Shown here: positions 6,818-18,488 of the stretch, piece after piece
Layout of the letters: the number at the start of each line of letters is the position of its first letter
How positions within the stretch are numbered: position 1 is the stretch's first letter
Sequence record: PZ445134.1
DNA length: 64,000 nt
From: a phage
Reading direction: 5' to 3' (one strand)
The notes under the pieces: model-generated
Database searches by the model: none
Told to the model about the DNA's origin: nothing
Seen by the model: only the letters and a program-made list of their open reading frames with translations
Program-made: the position numbers and the translations under genes

Positions 6818-7242
6818 TGTATCTTATCCCTGAATCTTATGAATTGGTACTCGAAAATGTCGAAGCACTTATTCCTGAAGCACAGGGCCGAATCGATGCA
6901 TTGTCTTCTGCTCTCGATATTGACGATATAAATACTATTATCGAGAACATGCTTGAAACTGAAACGGATTTAGCTGTTGCAATGGCTTCCATTATTAATG
7001 AAGAACAGTTAAATGAGTTTATCGTTAAACATGTTTCTTCTCGTGGTGAAGTCACTCGCACTAAAGACCGTAAAACTCGTGAACGTAACGCGTTCCAAAC
7101 AACTGGTCTTTCTAAAGCAAAACGTAGACAAATCGCTCGTAAGGTCGTTAAAGCTAAAAAAGCTAACCCTTCAGGCCAAGTTAAAGGCTTGCGTAAGCGT
7201 AAAAAAGCTCTTAAACGTCGTAAAGCATTAGGATTAAGCTAA
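6817..7242 (+). CDS. 68: prohead core protein
   Basis: 141 aa, basic C-terminus; T4 gp68 size and position. Confidence 0.75.
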
Positions 7243-7883
7243 TGAATAAACCCGAGTTACTTATTGAAACTTGGGGTCAACCCGGTGAGATTATTGATGG
7301 CGTTCCAATGTTGGAATCTCATGATGGAAAAGATTCTGGCTTAAAACCAGGGCTTTATATAGAAGGTATTTTTCTTCAGGCAGAGGTTGTTAACCGAAAT
7401 AAACGTTTATATCCTAAACGCGTTTTGGAAAAAGCAGTAAGTGACTATATTAAAGAACAAGTCGAAACCAAACAAGCCCTTGGAGAATTAAACCATCCAC
7501 CTCGTGCAAATGTTGACCCCATGCAAGCCGCTATCATTATTGAAGATATGTGGTGGAAAGGAAACGATGTATATGGACGTGCTAGAATTATTGAAGGCGA
7601 CCATGGTCCCGGCGATAAATTAGCTGCTAATATACGAGCTGGTTGGATTCCAGGTGTTTCCTCTCGTGGTCTTGGTTCTTTAACCGACACCAATAAAGGG
7701 TACCGTATCGTGAACGAAGGATTTAAATTAACCGTCGGCGTAGATGCCGTATGGGGACCTTCTGCTCCAGATGCTTGGGTTACTCCTAAACAAATATCAG
7801 AATCAGAAAATTCGGTGGAAATCACCAAAAACAGTGCTGACGAAGCATTTAAAGCTCTCGCAGAGAGTTTAAAAGCATTATAA
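7242..7883 (+). CDS. 21: prohead core scaffold protein and protease
   Basis: 213 aa, T4 gp21 size and position between 68 and 22. Confidence 0.85.
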   Translation: MNKPELLIETWGQPGEIIDGVPMLESHDGKDSGLKPGLYIEGIFLQAEVVNRNKRLYPKRVLEKAVSDYIKEQVETKQALGELNHPPRANVDPMQAAIIIEDMWWKGNDVYGRARIIEGDHGPGDKLAANIRAGWIPGVSSRGLGSLTDTNKGYRIVNEGFKLTVGVDAVWGPSAPDAWVTPKQISESENSVEITKNSADEAFKALAESLKAL

Positions 7884-7916: not shown

Positions 7917-8729
7917 ATGATCAAAGAACAACTTTTGAAAGAAGCTCAGAACATCGAGACTTCAGTTGCTCTTAATAGTGTTTTCGAATCAGTAGAACTG
8001 TCTCCGGACGTTAAAGCTAATTTCAGCACTGTATTCGAAGCCACCGTTAAGCAGGAAGCAGTCAAACTGGCTGAATCTCATATCAAAGCCATCGCCGAAA
8101 AGGCCGAAGAAGAAGTTGAAAAGGCTAAAGAAGATGCTGAAGAGAAAGCTGATAAAAAATTGGCCGAACAAGCTTCTAAATTCCTAGACCATCTTGCAAA
8201 AGAATGGCTCGCAGAAAACCAAATCGCAGTTGATAAAGGCATTAAAGCTGATTTGTTCGAATCCATGCTTGGTGGTCTGAAAGAACTGTTTGTTGAACAT
8301 AACGTTGTTGTTCCAGAAGAATCTGTAGATGTTGTAGCAGAAATGGAAGAAGAGCTGGCCGAACATAAAGAAGAAACCGCTCGTTTGTTCGAAGAAGTTA
8401 CCAAACGTGATGCATATATCAATTACGTTCAGCGTGAAACCGCTATTAATGAAAGCGTAAAAGACCTGACTGAATCTCAGAAAGAAAAAGTTATTGGCCT
8501 GGTTGAAGGTATGGATTATTCTGACACATTTGGTACTAAGTTAACTGCTATTGTAGAAATGGTTAAAGGTTCTACTAAAGAAGAAGCCGCTATTACCGAA
8601 AATATAAATACAGTTGACAATGACGCTGCCGGTCTTAATTTTGTTGCCGAAGCAGTTGACACTACCACAACTCAGGTAGAACAGAATTCTAATGTAAGTT
8701 TATATGCGAAAGTCGCATCTCGTTTCTAA
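7917..8729 (+). CDS. 22: prohead core scaffold protein
   Basis: 270 aa, Glu/Lys-rich coiled-coil-like, T4 gp22 size and position; late promoter upstream. Confidence 0.85.
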   Translation: MIKEQLLKEAQNIETSVALNSVFESVELSPDVKANFSTVFEATVKQEAVKLAESHIKAIAEKAEEEVEKAKEDAEEKADKKLAEQASKFLDHLAKEWLAENQIAVDKGIKADLFESMLGGLKELFVEHNVVVPEESVDVVAEMEEELAEHKEETARLFEEVTKRDAYINYVQRETAINESVKDLTESQKEKVIGLVEGMDYSDTFGTKLTAIVEMVKGSTKEEAAITENINTVDNDAAGLNFVAEAVDTTTTQVEQNSNVSLYAKVASRF

Positions 8730-8746: not shown

Positions 8747-10315
8747 ATGACTACTATCAAAACTAAAGCTCAGCTCGTAGACAAATGGAAAGAACTGCTG
8801 GAAGGTGAAGGCCTGCCGGAAATCGCTAATAGTAAGCAGGCTATTATCGCTAAAATCTTCGAAAACCAGGAAAAAGATTTCGAAGTATCCCCTGAATATA
8901 AAGACGAGAAAATCGCTCAGGCATTTGGTTCTTTCTTGACCGAAGCTGAAATTGGTGGTGACCACGGTTATAATGCTCAGAACATCGCAGCAGGTCAAAC
9001 CTCTGGTGCAGTAACCCAGATTGGGCCGGCAGTTATGGGTATGGTTCGTCGTGCTATTCCTAATCTGATCGCTTTCGATATTTGTGGTGTTCAGCCTATG
9101 AACAGCCCTACCGGTCAGGTATTTGCTCTCCGTGCAGTATATGGTAAAGACCCTATCGCTGCTGACGCTAAAGAAGCTTTCCATCCGATGTATGCTCCAG
9201 ACGCGATGTTCTCTGGTCAGGGTGCTGCTAAGAAATTCCCAGCTCTGGCTGCTAGCACACAAACCGTTGTAGGTGATATCTATACTCACTTCTTCCAGGA
9301 CACTGGTACTGTGTATCTACAAGCTTCCGCTGTAGTAACAATTGATGCTGGCGCTACCGATGCAACTAAACTGGATGCTGAAATTAAGAAACAAATGGAA
9401 GCTGGTGTACTGGTAGAAATCGCTGAAGGTATGGCTACTTCTATCGCTGAACTTCAGGAAGGTTTCAATGGTTCTACCGACAACCCGTGGAACGAAATGG
9501 GCTTCCGTATCGACAAACAAGTTATTGAAGCTAAATCTCGTCAGTTGAAAGCAGCTTACTCCATCGAATTGGCACAAGACCTCCGTGCAGTACACGGTAT
9601 GGATGCTGATGCTGAACTGAGCGGTATTCTTGCTACTGAAATTATGCTGGAAATCAACCGTGAAGTTGTTGACTGGATTAACTACTCCGCTCAGGTTGGT
9701 AAATCTGGTATGACTAATATCGTTGGTTCTAAAGCTGGTGTATTTGACTTCCAGGACCCGATTGATATCCGTGGTGCTCGTTGGGCTGGTGAAAGCTTTA
9801 AAGCTCTGTTGTTCCAGATTGATAAAGAAGCAGTTGAAATTGCTCGTCAAACCGGTCGTGGTGAAGGTAACTTCATTATCGCTTCCCGTAACGTAGTTAA
9901 CGTACTGGCTTCAGTTGATACTGGTATTTCTTACGCTGCACAGGGTCTGGCTTCTGGTTTTAATACCGACACTACTAAGTCTGTATTTGCCGGTGTACTT
10001 GGTGGTAAATACCGCGTATACATCGACCAGTATGCTAAACAGGATTACTTCACCGTTGGTTACAAAGGCGCTAACGAAATGGATGCAGGTATTTACTATG
10101 CTCCTTACGTTGCACTTACCCCACTGCGTGGTTCCGATCCTAAGAACTTCCAGCCGGTAATGGGCTTTAAAACTCGTTACGGTATCGGTGTTAACCCGTT
10201 TGCTGAAAGTTCCCTGCAGGCTCCAGGTGCTCGCATCCAGTCCGGTATGCCGTCTATCCTGAACAGCCTTGGTAAGAACGCTTACTTTAGACGCGTCTAC
10301 GTTAAAGGAATTTAA
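8747..10315 (+). CDS. 23: major capsid protein
   Basis: 522 aa, T4 gp23-like (MTTIKTKAQLVDKWKELLEGEG...), codon usage typical of a highly expressed gene. Confidence 0.95.
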   Translation: MTTIKTKAQLVDKWKELLEGEGLPEIANSKQAIIAKIFENQEKDFEVSPEYKDEKIAQAFGSFLTEAEIGGDHGYNAQNIAAGQTSGAVTQIGPAVMGMVRRAIPNLIAFDICGVQPMNSPTGQVFALRAVYGKDPIAADAKEAFHPMYAPDAMFSGQGAAKKFPALAASTQTVVGDIYTHFFQDTGTVYLQASAVVTIDAGATDATKLDAEIKKQMEAGVLVEIAEGMATSIAELQEGFNGSTDNPWNEMGFRIDKQVIEAKSRQLKAAYSIELAQDLRAVHGMDADAELSGILATEIMLEINREVVDWINYSAQVGKSGMTNIVGSKAGVFDFQDPIDIRGARWAGESFKALLFQIDKEAVEIARQTGRGEGNFIIASRNVVNVLASVDTGISYAAQGLASGFNTDTTKSVFAGVLGGKYRVYIDQYAKQDYFTVGYKGANEMDAGIYYAPYVALTPLRGSDPKNFQPVMGFKTRYGIGVNPFAESSLQAPGARIQSGMPSILNSLGKNAYFRRVYVKGI

Positions 10316-10344
10316 TGCTTTAACGTTAAAATACATAACCTTAT

Positions 10345-10362
10345 GGGAGACTCCGGTCTCCC
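10345..10362 (+). terminator. stem-loop GGGAGAC-UCCG-GUCUCCC followed by U-rich tract, downstream of gene 23
   Basis: perfect 7-bp inverted repeat read in sequence, followed by attcttgttt. Confidence 0.55.
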
Positions 10363-10372
10363 ATTCTTGTTT

Positions 10373-11032
10373 CTATAGCTTAAAACAATCATCGCGTTCA
10401 TTAATCCAATTTCTTATAGTTTTTGCGGATACGTTAAAGAATTCGGCAGCGTAATCGTAGTGGTTAAATTCATGACCTTTAATAGAAATATCCACAAATA
10501 CAAATTTCTTACCTTTATTAGAATTCTTTCTAATTTTTGCTTTATGCTCTTCTGATAGTTTTCTACCTTTAAGATGAGAATCTCTATTTTTATAAAACTT
10601 TTTATTTGCTATAGATTTGTTTTCTCGATGTTCTTTAGATTCTTTAGAACCTAATTTCTTTTTAGATATTTTGGCCCGAACTTCTTCAGTCATACCAGCT
10701 TTTGTCTTTTCGGATAACATCTCACGATACCCAGGTTCCTGTAAAGCTACTATAACAGGATTACCCTTGCCGCCTAAGGCGGCATTATAAGTATCTGTTC
10801 TCATGACAAAAGCCTCGTCAACTAGTTCGGCTTCCTTAGCATACATCTCTTCAGATGTTTCGAAATTGAAAAGGATTTCCTTTTTAAAATTCTCTAAGCC
10901 GTATTTCTTTATGGATTTTACTATGTTAACCCCGGAACCCATATAAGAATCGTTAACATCTGTAGTGGCATGGGCTCCAACATAAATCTTGTTATTAATG
11001 AGATTGGTTATTTTGTAAATTAAATAATTCAT
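10373..11032 (-). CDS. free-standing GIY-YIG homing endonuclease (Seg-like)
   Basis: 219 aa; N-terminal IYKITNLINNKIYVGAH (GIY-YIG) and C-terminal basic NUMOD-like repeats; sits between genes 23 and 24 on the opposite strand. Confidence 0.8.
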   Translation of the reverse strand: MNYLIYKITNLINNKIYVGAHATTDVNDSYMGSGVNIVKSIKKYGLENFKKEILFNFETSEEMYAKEAELVDEAFVMRTDTYNAALGGKGNPVIVALQEPGYREMLSEKTKAGMTEEVRAKISKKKLGSKESKEHRENKSIANKKFYKNRDSHLKGRKLSEEHKAKIRKNSNKGKKFVFVDISIKGHEFNHYDYAAEFFNVSAKTIRNWINERDDCFKL

Positions 11033-11035
11033 ATT

Positions 11036-11302
11036 TTACGCTGTTTTGACACGACGGTTGATGATATCACGGAAGTCAATACGATTTTCTTGGATTTTCA
11101 GCCAGTTACCAGATTTGTCTTTGGTATGGGTAGAGTATTCACCGTTCCACCAGAAGTCGGTAGCATAAGCCATGGCTTCGTATTTCTTAACTAGTGCATT
11201 CACTGCATTACCGTTAGGATTGGAACCATATTTTTCTACCAGGGCTTTGATGTCTTTGTCAAGGTTAGAAAGTGTGGTACGGATAAAGTTTAATTTGTTC
11301 AT
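11036..11302 (-). CDS. hypothetical early protein co-transcribed with the homing endonuclease
   Basis: ORF with GAGGAG Shine-Dalgarno upstream of the ATG at 11302 (the longer track ORF starts at 11317); early promoter upstream. Confidence 0.5.
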   Translation of the reverse strand: MNKLNFIRTTLSNLDKDIKALVEKYGSNPNGNAVNALVKKYEAMAYATDFWWNGEYSTHTKDKSGNWLKIQENRIDFRDIINRRVKTA

Positions 11303-11330
11303 TTTTAATCTCCTCATGTTTTGATAGGTC

Positions 11331-11361
11331 TATAGTAACACAACGCTTTTTGTGTGTAAAC
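11331..11361 (-). promoter_or_regulatory. sigma70-type early promoter (GTTTAC -35, TATAGTA-type -10) for the 11302 ORF and the homing endonuclease
   Basis: + strand ctatagtaaca ... gtaaac matches the motif recurring upstream of other - strand early genes in this window. Confidence 0.45.
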
Positions 11362-11367
11362 CACTTT

Positions 11368-11375
11368 TATAAATA
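11368..11375 (+). promoter_or_regulatory. late promoter TATAAATA for gene 24
   Basis: exact TATAAATA about 30 nt upstream of the gene 24 ATG. Confidence 0.6.
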
Positions 11376-11405
11376 AAATTATATTCTCAATAAGGAAAAA
11401 ATGCA

Positions 11406-12689
11406 ATGAGTAAAATCCAAAAATTATTGCGTGAATCTACAACGTCTACTAGCAACTCAATTGGTCGCCCAAATCTCGTTGCTTTGACTCGCGCTACGAC
11501 TAAATTAATATATTCTGACATTGTAGCAACACAAAGAACTAATCAACCTGTTGCTGCTTTTTATGGTATCAAATATCTTAACCCAGATAACGAATTCACA
11601 TTTAAAACTGGTGCTACTTATGCTGGCGAAGTTGGATATGTAGACCGAGAAAAAATTACTGAGCTCACAGAAGAATCAAAAGTCACACTAAATAAAGGCG
11701 ATTTTTTCAAATATAATAATATCGTCTATAAAGTGTTAGAAGATACACCGTTTGCAGATATTCAAGAAAGTGATCTAGAATTAGCTCTTCAGATTGCAGT
11801 CGTTCATTTAAAGGTACGGTTATTTTCAGATGCAGCGGTAACAAGCAAATTTGAAAGCTCTGGTAGCGAAATTTCTGATGCAAGATTCCAGATTAATAAA
11901 TGGCAAACTTCAGTCAAATCTCGTAAACTTAAAACTGGCCTCACGGTTGAATTAGCGCAAGATTTGGAAGCGAATGGATTTGATGCCCCTAACTTCTTAG
12001 AAGATTTGCTTGCTACTGAAATGGCTGATGAAATTAATAAAGATATTCTTCAGTCTTTAATTACTGTATCGAAACGTTATAAAGTTACTGGAATTACTGA
12101 CACCGGATTTATTGACTTGAGCTATGCATCCGCTCCAGAAGCAGGTCGTTCATTATATCGAATGGTGTGTGAAATGGTATCACACATTCAAAAAGAGACA
12201 ACTTATACTGCAACGTTTTGTGTAGCCTCAGCTCGTGCAGCTGCTATTCTCGCTGCTTCCGGTTGGTTGAAACATAAGCCAGAAGATGACAAGTATCTTT
12301 CACAAAATGCTTATGGATTCTTGGCAAATGGATTACCTCTTTACTGCGATACCAACAGTCCGTTAGATTATGTTATTGTGGGTGTTGTAGAAAATATTGG
12401 CGAAAAAGAAATTGTAGGGTCCATCTTTTATGCTCCATACACTGAAGGAGTAGATTTAGATGACCCAGAACATGTTGGTGCATTTAAAGTTGTAGTTGAT
12501 CCAGAAAGCTTGCAACCGTCTATCGGATTATTGGTTAGATATGCTTTATCAGCAAATCCTTATACAGTAGCAAAAAATGAAAAAGAAGCGAGAATAATTG
12601 ATGGTGGGGACATGGATAAAATGGCAGGACGTTCAGACTTGTCTGTTTTACTCGGTGTTAAATTGCCAAAAATCATCGTTGATGAATAA
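11406..12689 (+). CDS. 24: head vertex protein
   Basis: 427 aa, T4 gp24 size and position; gp23 paralogue. Confidence 0.9.
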   Translation: MSKIQKLLRESTTSTSNSIGRPNLVALTRATTKLIYSDIVATQRTNQPVAAFYGIKYLNPDNEFTFKTGATYAGEVGYVDREKITELTEESKVTLNKGDFFKYNNIVYKVLEDTPFADIQESDLELALQIAVVHLKVRLFSDAAVTSKFESSGSEISDARFQINKWQTSVKSRKLKTGLTVELAQDLEANGFDAPNFLEDLLATEMADEINKDILQSLITVSKRYKVTGITDTGFIDLSYASAPEAGRSLYRMVCEMVSHIQKETTYTATFCVASARAAAILAASGWLKHKPEDDKYLSQNAYGFLANGLPLYCDTNSPLDYVIVGVVENIGEKEIVGSIFYAPYTEGVDLDDPEHVGAFKVVVDPESLQPSIGLLVRYALSANPYTVAKNEKEARIIDGGDMDKMAGRSDLSVLLGVKLPKIIVDE

Positions 12690-15518: not shown

Positions 15519-16187
15519 TTATTTTAATGTTACGAAAGAAGAATTACGAGATTCACGAATTAGAACTGATCCATCGCGATTAATATAATAAATTAAGCTA
15601 AATAATGTTTGGTGAGCAGAAGCATGCACAAAACTAGTTGGGCGAGATTTCCAATCTGGGGTTTCGGCTATCCATTGATAAATCCACCAAGGAACAGTAA
15701 CATATCCTGGGCTTTTGCCTAATTTAATGAGTGTAGGACTAAAATTTTCAGGCAGAACAAATGTTACTTCTTTATTTACATCTGCCTCAGGCTCTTTTTC
15801 AGATTCAACAACCTGAGTAATTGCTTCTTCGAATTTATCATGGTCGAATTCTTTTTCTTGTTCGACAACTTCTAATACTTCAACTTGTTCTGTTGGAGAA
15901 TCAAACAACAGAATAGCTTCTTCTTTAACTTCTTCGTTGGTGAAATTAACACCGTCTGCATCATCTGCGGCAGTAATTAAATCAGTGATAGATAATCCAT
16001 CAGTTTCAGGTAATGGTTCATCAGCCAGTGCTTTAAGAGCTTCTTCGATATCAATAACAATATTATCGAATGATTTTGTTTTCTTAACACTTATGCCAAA
16101 TTGTTCTGCGTATTCAAACAGTTTAGCTTTGGCTTCCTTTTTATCAGAAAGAGCACGTAACTCTTCAATGTAGTCTTTATCGATCAT
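15519..16187 (-). CDS. inh: putative inhibitor of prohead protease
   Basis: 222 aa acidic protein in the T4 inh position between hoc and the homing endonuclease. Confidence 0.6.
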   Translation of the reverse strand: MIDKDYIEELRALSDKKEAKAKLFEYAEQFGISVKKTKSFDNIVIDIEEALKALADEPLPETDGLSITDLITAADDADGVNFTNEEVKEEAILLFDSPTEQVEVLEVVEQEKEFDHDKFEEAITQVVESEKEPEADVNKEVTFVLPENFSPTLIKLGKSPGYVTVPWWIYQWIAETPDWKSRPTSFVHASAHQTLFSLIYYINRDGSVLIRESRNSSFVTLK

Positions 16188-16224
16188 GGTATTTCCTCAT
16201 TATAAATATAACTATATTTATTAC

Positions 16225-16968
16225 ATGGAAAAGAGTATGTATCACTTTGTTTATGAGACCGTAAATTTAATCAATGGTAAAAAGTACATTGGCAAACATT
16301 CTACAGAAAATTTAAACGATTCGTATCTAGGGTCAGGTGTTGCCTTAAATCGCGCTATCAAAAAATACGGAAAAGAATCATTTAAACGTTCAATAATTAA
16401 ACAATTTGAAACTTCCGCTGAAGCTTTAGAATACGAAGCTCAGTTAGTAACAGAGGATTTGGTCAAATCTAACGAGTATTATAATATGCGCCAAGGCGGT
16501 GAAGGTGGAAGGTATAAGTACACCGAAGCTGATAAGACTAAAATGTCTAATAGTGCTAAAGAACGAATAAAGAGGCTTGGTCATAATCTTTTAGGAAAAC
16601 ACAGATCGGAAGAAACAAAAAGAAAACTATCTGAAACAAATAAACGTCGATACTCTGAAGACCCGACATGCCACGGGCGGTATGGTACAGGAAAGCCAAA
16701 GATTGATAAAATTAAAGGTCCTAAAAATCCTACAACTCTAAATAAAATTTGTGTTAACAACGGTAAAGAAAACAGATTTATATCAGCCGAGGACCCGATG
16801 CCTGAAGGATTTGTAAAAGGAATGGTCCAACTTAATAGAAAATCTAGAAAGGGCTGTGAAGTAAAACCTACGACCACCGGCAGAATATGGGTAAATAACG
16901 GGGCTATAAATAAATTAGTAAATCCGTTATCCATCCCAGATGGATATGTTAAAGGCCGTTTAAGGTAA
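16225..16968 (+). CDS. free-standing GIY-YIG homing endonuclease (SegE-like by position)
   Basis: GIY-YIG N-terminus HFVYETVNLINGKKYIGKHS; C-terminal repeated VNNG...G(F/Y)VKG DNA-binding motifs; start uncertain (16186, 16225 or 16237). Confidence 0.75.
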   Translation: MEKSMYHFVYETVNLINGKKYIGKHSTENLNDSYLGSGVALNRAIKKYGKESFKRSIIKQFETSAEALEYEAQLVTEDLVKSNEYYNMRQGGEGGRYKYTEADKTKMSNSAKERIKRLGHNLLGKHRSEETKRKLSETNKRRYSEDPTCHGRYGTGKPKIDKIKGPKNPTTLNKICVNNGKENRFISAEDPMPEGFVKGMVQLNRKSRKGCEVKPTTTGRIWVNNGAINKLVNPLSIPDGYVKGRLR

Positions 16969-16973
16969 TTATT

Positions 16974-18488
16974 ATGACAGATATTAAAGTACATTTTCAT
17001 GATTTTAGCCATGTAAGAATTGAATGCGACGAAAGCGTGTTCTATGAATTACGCGACTTTTTTAGCTTTGAAGCCGATGGGTACAAATTCAACCCGCGTT
17101 ACAAATATGGGAACTGGGATGGTAGAATTCGACTTTTAGATTATAACCGTTTGTTACCATACGGACTTGTAGGACAAATAAAAAAGTTCTGTAACAATAT
17201 GAGTTATTCTGTATGGATTGACCCTAAAATCTTTGAGACAGAAGATCTTACCAGGGAAGATTTTGACGCATGGCTTTCTAAACAAGAAATTTATTCTGGC
17301 AACGCCAAAATCGAACCACATTGGTATCAAAAAGATGCAGTATACGAAGGACTAGTTAATCGTCGTCGAATTTTAAACCTTCCGACATCAGCAGGTAAAT
17401 CACTAATCCAAGCACTTTTAGCTCGTTATTATCTAGAGAACTATGAAGGTAAAATTCTCATTATCGTCCCTACAACAGCATTGACAACCCAGATGGCTAA
17501 TGATTTTGTTGATTATCGCTTGTTTAATCATTCGATGATTAAGAAAATTGGCGGCGGTGCTGATAAAGCAGACAAATCTAAAAACGACGCTCCAATTATT
17601 GTTGGCACATGGCAAACAGTAGTTAAGCAGCCTAAAGAATGGTTCTCTCAGTTCGGTATGATGATGAATGATGAATGCCACTTAGCAACAGGCAAAAGTA
17701 TTTCTTCAATCATCTCAGGATTAAATAATTGCATGTTTAAATTCGGTTTATCTGGCTCATTAAGAGACGGAAAAGCCAATGTAATGCAGTACGTAGGTAT
17801 GTTCGGCGAAATCTTCCGTCCTGTTAGCACGTCTAAATTAATGGAAGACGGGCAGGTAACTGAGCTTAAGATTAATAGTATTTTCCTTCGTTATCCGGAC
17901 GAATTCACTGTTAAATTAAAAGGTAAAACATACCAAGAAGAAGTTAAAATTATTACCGGACTAAAACGACGTACAAAGTGGATTGCTCAACTTTCAGTCA
18001 AATTGGCTAAGAAAGACGAGAACGCCTTTGTAATGTTTAAACACGTTACACACGGTAAAGAAATATTTGAAGCTATTAAAGAGCTTGGATACGAAAAAGT
18101 TTATTACGTATCAGGTGAAGTTGATACTGAAACACGTAACGCGCTTAAAGTTATGGCAGAAAATGGTAAAGGCATTATTATTGTCGCATCATATGGAGTA
18201 TTCTCTACTGGTATTTCAGTCAAGAATCTTCATCATGTTATTTTCGCCCATGGTGTTAAATCAAAAATTATCGTACTTCAAACCGTAGGTCGCGTGCTTC
18301 GTAAGCATGGTTCTAAAGCTGTTGCTACAGTTTGGGATCTCATCGATGACGCAGGTGTAAAACCTAAATCATTAAATACTAAAAAGAAGTATACTCATCT
18401 TAATTACTTGTTAAAACACGGTATTGATCGTATCCAACGTTACGCTGATGAGAAATTTAACTATGTAATGAAAACAATTAATTTATAA
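16974..18488 (+). CDS. uvsW: UvsW DNA/RNA helicase (SF2)
   Basis: 504 aa; helicase motifs PTSAGKS (Walker A) and DECH; T4 UvsW position. Confidence 0.9.
   Translation: MTDIKVHFHDFSHVRIECDESVFYELRDFFSFEADGYKFNPRYKYGNWDGRIRLLDYNRLLPYGLVGQIKKFCNNMSYSVWIDPKIFETEDLTREDFDAWLSKQEIYSGNAKIEPHWYQKDAVYEGLVNRRRILNLPTSAGKSLIQALLARYYLENYEGKILIIVPTTALTTQMANDFVDYRLFNHSMIKKIGGGADKADKSKNDAPIIVGTWQTVVKQPKEWFSQFGMMMNDECHLATGKSISSIISGLNNCMFKFGLSGSLRDGKANVMQYVGMFGEIFRPVSTSKLMEDGQVTELKINSIFLRYPDEFTVKLKGKTYQEEVKIITGLKRRTKWIAQLSVKLAKKDENAFVMFKHVTHGKEIFEAIKELGYEKVYYVSGEVDTETRNALKVMAENGKGIIIVASYGVFSTGISVKNLHHVIFAHGVKSKIIVLQTVGRVLRKHGSKAVATVWDLIDDAGVKPKSLNTKKKYTHLNYLLKHGIDRIQRYADEKFNYVMKTINL

Follow-up and report, generated by a model that had tools for sequence, protein, structure and literature searches.

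Gene order and expression signals at the gene 23/24 junction

We analyzed a 64,000-nt stretch of the phage record PZ445134.1, referred to here as the window. Its open reading frame (ORF) listing identifies the relevant part as the head-gene region of a T-even phage. Over positions 10200-11500, the closest records are Escherichia phages BEU50, NRG-P0074, and F2 and Shigella phage JK45 (98.6-98.8% identity). The features of the region are listed below, with the basis of each assignment in parentheses.

7242-7883, + strand: gene 21 (ORF list)
7917-8729, + strand: gene 22 (ORF list)
8747-10315, + strand: gene 23 (ORF list)
10343-10374, + strand: intrinsic terminator of gene 23, with a 9-bp GC-rich stem, a 4-nt loop, and a T-run (scan; conservation)
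10373-11032, - strand: segD-like gene for a free-standing GIY-YIG endonuclease of 219 aa (ORF; profiles; T4 SegD identity; model; dN/dS)
10378-11035, no strand: inserted segment of 658 bp, missing from SQ17, MX01, Bp7, JS10, and NC-G (alignment with relatives)
11036-11053, - strand: last codons of the small gene, a candidate protected target site (alignment with relatives)
11036-11302, - strand: small resident early gene of 88 aa, PHROG 6003 (ORF; profiles; dN/dS; model)
11309-11315, - strand: Shine-Dalgarno sequence GAGGAGA of the small gene, 6 nt 5' of its ATG (sequence; kept in relatives)
11332-11360, - strand: sigma70 early-type promoter (G)TTTACA-17 nt-TGt TACTAT, A/T-rich upstream (scan; phylogenetic footprint)
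11368-11375, + strand: late promoter of gene 24, TATAAATA, back to back with the early promoter (motif scan; conservation)
11406-12689, + strand: gene 24 (ORF list)
13717-12719, - strand: rnlB (ORF list)

These ORF coordinates bear out an earlier reading of the sequence alone (the sequence-only reading), which placed two minus-strand ORFs between the plus-strand genes 23 and 24. The small ORF has two candidate ATGs in the ORF list, at 11317 and 11302. We take 11302 to be the true start of the 88-aa ORF, because GAGGAGA lies 6 nt upstream of it and the upstream ATG is missing in phage LF82-1. From the small-gene stop codon to the segD start codon the sequence reads TAA-AAT-ATG. The gap is therefore 3 nt and not the 4 nt given originally. 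Direct inspection of the sequence revealed no Shine-Dalgarno sequence upstream of the segD ATG.

A scan of the minus strand for sigma70 promoters returned a single site, TTTACA-17-TACTAT with a TG, at 11360 to 11332. Shuffled sequence gives a mean of 4.0 promoter-like matches, so the scan alone is not above chance. We also compared the site in 13 related phages. The -35 (GTTTACA), TGn, and -10 (TACTAT) elements are preserved, and the 17-nt spacer is invariant in length, with at least four unrelated versions of its letters. The sole differing -10 element, CATAAT, is in VR7, the most divergent of the 13. With this conserved footprint, the claim that the islet has a sigma70 early-type promoter of its own stands. 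A promoter-motif search of the islet minus strand found neither a MotA box nor the late motif TATAAATA. The sole late motif at the islet is the one at 11368 on the plus strand, which serves gene 24 and is kept in all relatives compared, including T2 and T4. (In phage 005, this motif seems to be duplicated upstream of gene 24, with TTTATTTATAATTATTTATAAAAG on the opposite strand.) [quoted passage not shown] Because the islet promoter has a UP-like A/T tract, a -35, a TGn, and a -10, and because its strand has no MotA box or late motif, we can reasonably infer that it belongs to the early class.

The terminator scan found one hairpin, with its 9-bp stem at 10343-10364 and a T-run on the plus strand, and this gene 23 hairpin is conserved in all relatives compared. 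It also folds in minus-strand RNA (z = -4.0), with no clean U-tract on that strand. The minus-strand unit ends at this hairpin, in agreement with the proposal that the gene 23 hairpin bounds it. Both genes would be transcribed early, as a single unit, from the sigma70 promoter of the small gene, and transcription would end at the hairpin. In the same scheme segD, which has no ribosome-binding site of its own, would be translated by coupling to the small gene across TAA-AAT-ATG. We consider this route of early cotranscription and coupling likely.

The 219-aa protein and its small neighbor

The 219-aa product is almost certainly a free-standing GIY-YIG endonuclease of the SegD family. Because its Pfam matches are below threshold, this identification rests on a family profile, a phage protein cluster, T4 SegD, and a fold match. 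The protein passes the NCBIfam model TIGR01453 (group I intron endonuclease) with 57.4 bits against a cut-off of 56.05, over residues 5-214, and matches PHROG 314 (homing endonuclease) at 5e-54. It is 59% identical to T4 SegD, colinear over the full length, and 31% identical to T4 SegE. The Pfam matches (SegE_GIY-YIG, GIY-YIG, NUMOD3, and several HTH families) are all under their gathering scores, for example PF01541 at 16.2 against 22.6 and PF19835 at 20 against 25. A phmmer search of PDB sequences returned nothing relevant, and a profile of 44 sequences reaches I-TevI weakly (E = 0.02). An AF2 model built with 44 homologues has a mean pLDDT of 85.9, with both end domains above 90; residues 1-90 (pLDDT >90) follow a beta-beta-alpha-beta-alpha order. 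The best four Foldseek matches in the PDB are to the I-TevI catalytic domain (1mk0 and 1ln0; target TM, 0.63-0.68) and the I-TevI DNA-binding domain (1i3j), with a probability of 1.00. From the N to the C terminus, the protein has a catalytic domain (approximately residues 1-90), a linker that is basic and NUMOD3-like, and a helix-turn-helix. NCBI already contains an identical protein, and members of its cluster are named SegD or homing endonuclease. The free-standing GIY-YIG endonuclease of the sequence-only reading thereby becomes, more precisely, a homologue of T4 SegD at the corresponding locus. The clear GIY-YIG N terminus and NUMOD-like C terminus described there are present as motifs and fold but not as Pfam assignments, since GIY-YIG and NUMOD3 both score below gathering. 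A check by profile search was likewise divided, with Pfam below threshold and TIGR01453 above it.

The two signature motifs are LIY (residues 4-6) and YVG (residues 17-19) in this protein. All 44 homologues keep Y6, Y17, and G19, and these residues align with Y6/Y17 of I-TevI. The other clade invariants are H21, D28, Y30, G32, S33, G34, G45, F49, I53, E67, F75, Y82, N83, G87, and G88, and all 18 are present in the 219-aa protein. The invariant N83 belongs to a YN pair that aligns with Y-N90 of I-TevI, and the invariant E67 falls within 1 residue of E75. R27 of I-TevI has no aligned residue in the 219-aa protein by hmmsearch and hhalign; with both programs the I-TevI segment that contains it, DFEKRWKRH, is an insertion relative to the SegD clade. 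No Arg is conserved across the 44 aligned clade members. T4 SegE and T4 SegD likewise have the Arg-less motif set. T4 SegE is counted among the active homing enzymes (PMC2988022, PMC2330249), and SegD activity was detected in extracts of T4-infected cells (PMC2330249). Because all 44 members and these reportedly active T4 enzymes are without the Arg, its absence is a trait of the clade and not decay. H21, D28, Y30, or S33 could be a structural substitute for R27. Loss of the catalytic Arg or Glu had been put forward as a sign of a degenerate pseudogene; the Glu (E67) is kept, and the Arg is absent, yet absent throughout the clade.

All eight segD copies examined are intact and encode 219-223 aa. 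The 219-aa ORF has dN/dS values of 0.05-0.15 and the small ORF values of 0.06-0.17, and because of this purifying selection we regard both as real genes. Phage 04086 has an intact 223-aa segD-like ORF, at approximately 736-1404 on the minus strand of the compared piece, that is unannotated in GenBank. Elsewhere in the window, at 16186-16968 on the plus strand (probable start, 16234), is another GIY-YIG gene of the Seg type, MYHFVYETVNLINGKKYIGKHST..., which matches the SegD-clade profile with E = 2e-43. It lies between inh (16187-15519) and uvsW (16974-18488) and, judged by its sequence, is clearly a segE orthologue.

The small gene, present in approximately 120 phage records, belongs to PHROG 6003, annotated as "unknown," and matched no Pfam or NCBIfam family. 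A word-based sequence search gave 7 close relatives, and an exhaustive search of 1.8 billion representatives gave 6 matches. One of these six, a 1633-aa repeat protein, was rejected as similarity by composition. Another of the six, a metagenomic protein of 160 aa, matches the small gene at 85% identity over 34 residues that are joined to unrelated sequence, and it is most likely an assembly or gene-calling chimera. The model of the small protein (pLDDT, 89.9) has a helix-helix-beta hairpin-helix arrangement; in BFVD it matched its own homologue only, and no informative relative emerged from structure or sequence searches. Divergent alleles occupy the same locus in VR7 (65% identity, 901-1182) and UGJNEcP2 (33%, 443-712; numbering of the compared pieces). 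Acinetobacter phage ABPH49, in the Vequintavirinae, another subfamily, has a 41% identical homologue at 2501-2767 of the compared piece, with no Seg gene annotated within 2.5 kb. Such divergence is typical of fast-evolving accessory early genes.

Insertion of segD and its exchange between genera

We compared the junction with those of five segD-free phages. The common sequence runs through ...CCCATTCTTGTTTCTATA (to 10377) and resumes at 11036, at the small-gene stop codon. The extra DNA, 10378-11035, is 658 bp and is essentially the segD ORF alone; the segD stop codon falls in flanking sequence common to the segD-free phages. In these alignments segD is a clean insertion between the small-gene stop codon and the gene 23 terminator. 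The flanks of the segD-free phage SQ17 differ from those of the window by approximately 1.3% over 5.5 kb. A census of the junction in a phage collection counted 38 filled junctions (with segD) and 48 empty ones.

The small gene ends in ...GTT AAG ATT GCA TAG in segD-free phages and in ...GTC AAA (G/A)CA GC(G/A) TAA in segD carriers, with variants in UP19 and 04086. The two 12-nt versions of this end are AAGATTGCATAG and AAAGCAGCGTAA. The final four codons (11036-11047) are recoded in segD carriers only. This recoding is mostly synonymous, with a residue change of I to A or T, and is the sole polymorphism linked to segD. Upstream of 11047, GTC/GTT and CGN codons vary also among segD-free phages, and the link between the GTC codon and segD is not strict, as seen in VR5. 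A search of the window for the unrecoded end, allowing up to 3 mismatches, found no match. Scans of IMG/VR found no segD-free allele with a recoded end, but this says little, since that collection has only three empty and two filled junctions, all from known isolates. Polymorphisms at 11134-11243, seen in comparison with SQ17, were considered as a co-conversion tract and rejected; they are two old haplotypes common to carriers and noncarriers. Comparison with insert-free relatives had been proposed as a way to define the cleavage site. It yielded the 658-bp indel and the recoded codons, but the site itself only as a putative position.

The gene 23/24 junction occurs in four states, all in phages filed under Tequatrovirus: an empty 83 bp (for example, T2), the small gene (HZ_ZJUN4), the small gene with segD (the window), and segD only (T4). 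Most Tequatrovirus phages (T2, RB3, RB14, and RB33) have neither gene, with 83 bp between genes 23 and 24.

Copies of segD are present in phages filed under Tequatrovirus, Mosigvirus, and Dhakavirus. Between the window segD and its Dhakavirus counterparts in 005 and UP19, identity is 94-97%, and it drops to approximately 82% over the adjoining 500 nt of gene 23 and approximately 65% over those of gene 24. The cassette as a whole is 94-100% identical between genera that are 15-35% apart in their capsid genes. The DNA-binding half of segD (10373-10687) is 100% identical in UP19 and mobillu. In IME08 and 04086, the catalytic half is 97% identical and the DNA-binding half 66-79% identical. By this measure the two halves of segD have different histories, with two allele types of the DNA-binding half that recombine independently of the catalytic half. 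The segD-free Dhakavirus MX01 was compared with 10270-11400 of the window. The terminator, small gene, and promoters are approximately 95% identical, whereas genes 23 and 24, which flank the islet, have 8-30 mismatches per 100 nt. Therefore, the islet has been exchanged between genera even without segD. For the segD cassette, we regard recent exchange between genera as shown by these sequence comparisons.

Proposed homing, rival readings, and known systems

The explanation that we find probable on balance is that of a SegD-family homing gene with a borrowed promoter and a target at the end that is recoded in carriers. In a mixed infection, SegD would cleave the DNA of relatives that lack segD, at the small-gene 3' end or close to it. 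Repair from the segD genome would copy segD into the cut relative, and the recoded last codons would shield the carrier from cutting. Active homing is suggested by the clean insertion, the carrier-only recoding, and the 94-100% identity of the cassette across genera. For homing with a target near the small-gene 3' end in particular, we put the chance somewhat below even. Because Seg enzymes often cut tens to hundreds of base pairs away from where their genes are inserted, the target may lie outside the recoded codons, which could just mark the edge of the DNA that arrived with the cassette. The recoded ends are also not uniform among carriers, as UP19 and 04086 show, and this counts against the target reading. 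The missing R27 counterpart and the lack of a clean U-tract on the minus strand are further points against the overall explanation. Homing and the marker exclusion brought up in the sequence-only reading are both hypotheses for this enzyme.

Alternatively, the pair could be a two-gene module, with the 88-aa product assisting the endonuclease as its partner or as a factor for specificity or immunity. The 3-nt gap, the common promoter, and the probable translational coupling would fit such a module. However, the small gene is found without segD in at least 48 phage records from several genera (including SQ17, MX01, Bp7, JS10, NC-G, and HZ_ZJUN4), VR7 likewise has it without segD, T4 and T6 have segD and no small gene, the unrelated Acinetobacter phage has the homologue with no Seg gene annotated nearby, and small-gene haplotypes do not follow segD. 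Obligate co-occurrence is not seen, and each gene occurs without the other. We consider a module very unlikely, and the earlier suggestion that the 88-aa ORF is a partner or specificity factor does not hold; the small gene is a neighbor and promoter donor of segD and not its partner. Even less probable is that segD is the decaying, inactive remnant of a homing endonuclease. The Pfam GIY-YIG scores under threshold, the missing counterpart of I-TevI R27, and the lack of a ribosome-binding site could all be read as decay. But all examined copies are intact with dN/dS values of 0.05-0.15, and every clade invariant is present; for these reasons the pseudogene reading was dropped. The Arg-less motif set of T4 SegE and SegD, which are reported to be active, also speaks against it.

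The rival that deserves more weight, although we still think it unlikely, is a stranded or domesticated SegD. This would be an active site-specific endonuclease that does not home its own gene, which would spread only by ordinary recombination at a recombination-prone junction. Such a variant may cut where carrier and segD-free genomes are alike and have another role, for example, in cleaving competitor DNA elsewhere or in promoting recombination. The published 16-bp T4 SegD site is reportedly identical in segD+ and segD- phages. T4 SegD, the only characterized orthologue, is reported not to drive its own homing (Sokolov et al. 2018), which supports a stranded enzyme, as do the SegD activity in T4-infected cell extracts (PMC2330249) and a DNA-binding helix-turn-helix very similar to that of T4 SegD. 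MX01 argues the same way, since an islet approximately 95% identical across genera in a segD-free phage means that exchange needs no segD today. A clean indel at a single fixed point in three genera, a DNA-binding half that is 100% identical across genera, and a segD-linked recoding exactly at the junction are harder to reconcile with a stranded enzyme. Strong purifying selection is expected under both the homing and the stranded readings. A full-text search for SegD work published since 2018 returned nothing useful.

The element is of a known kind at a known locus, ordinary for T-even phages and annotated in close relatives. Its annotation value is small, because T4 has long been known to carry segD between genes 23 and 24 and because the exact protein is already deposited. 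The comparative data offer more. They provide a concrete candidate target and immunity site for a SegD-type enzyme, point to a probable promoter and translational-coupling route for SegD expression, and suggest why the T4 copy is a nonhoming oddity. They also reveal the 23/24 junction as a four-state hot spot, at which optional early genes are swapped between genera inside a conserved late operon. These comparative details are useful leads and not a discovery.

T4 SegD (NP_049788) is encoded at the same locus between genes 23 and 24, in the same antisense orientation. It shares with the 219-aa protein its domain order and a C-terminal ...YAAE.F.VS.KTIRNWIN helix-turn-helix. However, it differs at 41% of residues. 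The small gene is missing from T4, where segD directly follows a promoter and Shine-Dalgarno sequence homologous to those of the small gene here. T4 segD has been described as the only endonuclease gene antisense to its neighbors, with no segD-specific promoter found (PMC2988022). In T4 (NC_000866; 3734-3790 of the compared piece, minus strand) we found TTTACA-17-TATTAT with a TG, a 10/12 match, upstream of segD. This upstream region is colinear with that of the small gene here (-35, -10, GGAG, and TTTAAAATG), and the match beats 998/1000 shuffles. The ATG that aligns in T4 falls at codon 4 of the 223-aa SegD as annotated and corresponds to M1 of the protein here. In T4, 2 nt separate GGAG from the annotated start codon, and 11 nt separate it from the second ATG. 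T4 SegD probably starts at codon 4 of the annotated ORF, and T4 looks like the same cassette minus the body of the small gene. The 3' insertion junction sequence of T4 differs from that of the window, so the two junctions are not the same.

These similarities allow a more speculative scenario, which we hold only tentatively and think rather improbable. The SegD variant here would home actively on the small-gene stop region, moving the gene and its promoter between T-even genera, and T4 segD would be a derivative that arose after loss of the small gene. That loss would have occurred by deletion between the two ATGs and would have cost T4 SegD a usable target in T2-type genomes, with their 83-bp junction. 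If true, this scenario would account for the reported lack of homing by T4 SegD and for the absence of a promoter assigned to its gene.

T4 SegE, SegF, SegG, SegB, and SegA are free-standing GIY-YIG homing endonucleases whose genes spread by double-strand-break repair with co-conversion of flanks. Their targets are known, whereas the target here is deduced from the junction. Like segD in the window, the genes for these five are optional, lie between other genes, and have weak translation signals or none (PMC2988022). They differ in having the same orientation as their neighbors and middle or late promoters (PMC2988022), whereas segD here is antisense and has an early-type promoter. T4 SegE has in common with the 219-aa protein the catalytic set Y6, Y17, G19, H21, D28, Y30, GSG, E67, and N83. 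I-TevI, in contrast, is intron encoded and has a zinc finger, neither of which applies to the 219-aa protein, and its R27 segment is an insertion relative to the SegD clade. Even so, I-TevI (1mk0, 1ln0, and 1i3j) shares with the 219-aa protein a two-domain architecture, both predicted folds, and membership in TIGR01453.
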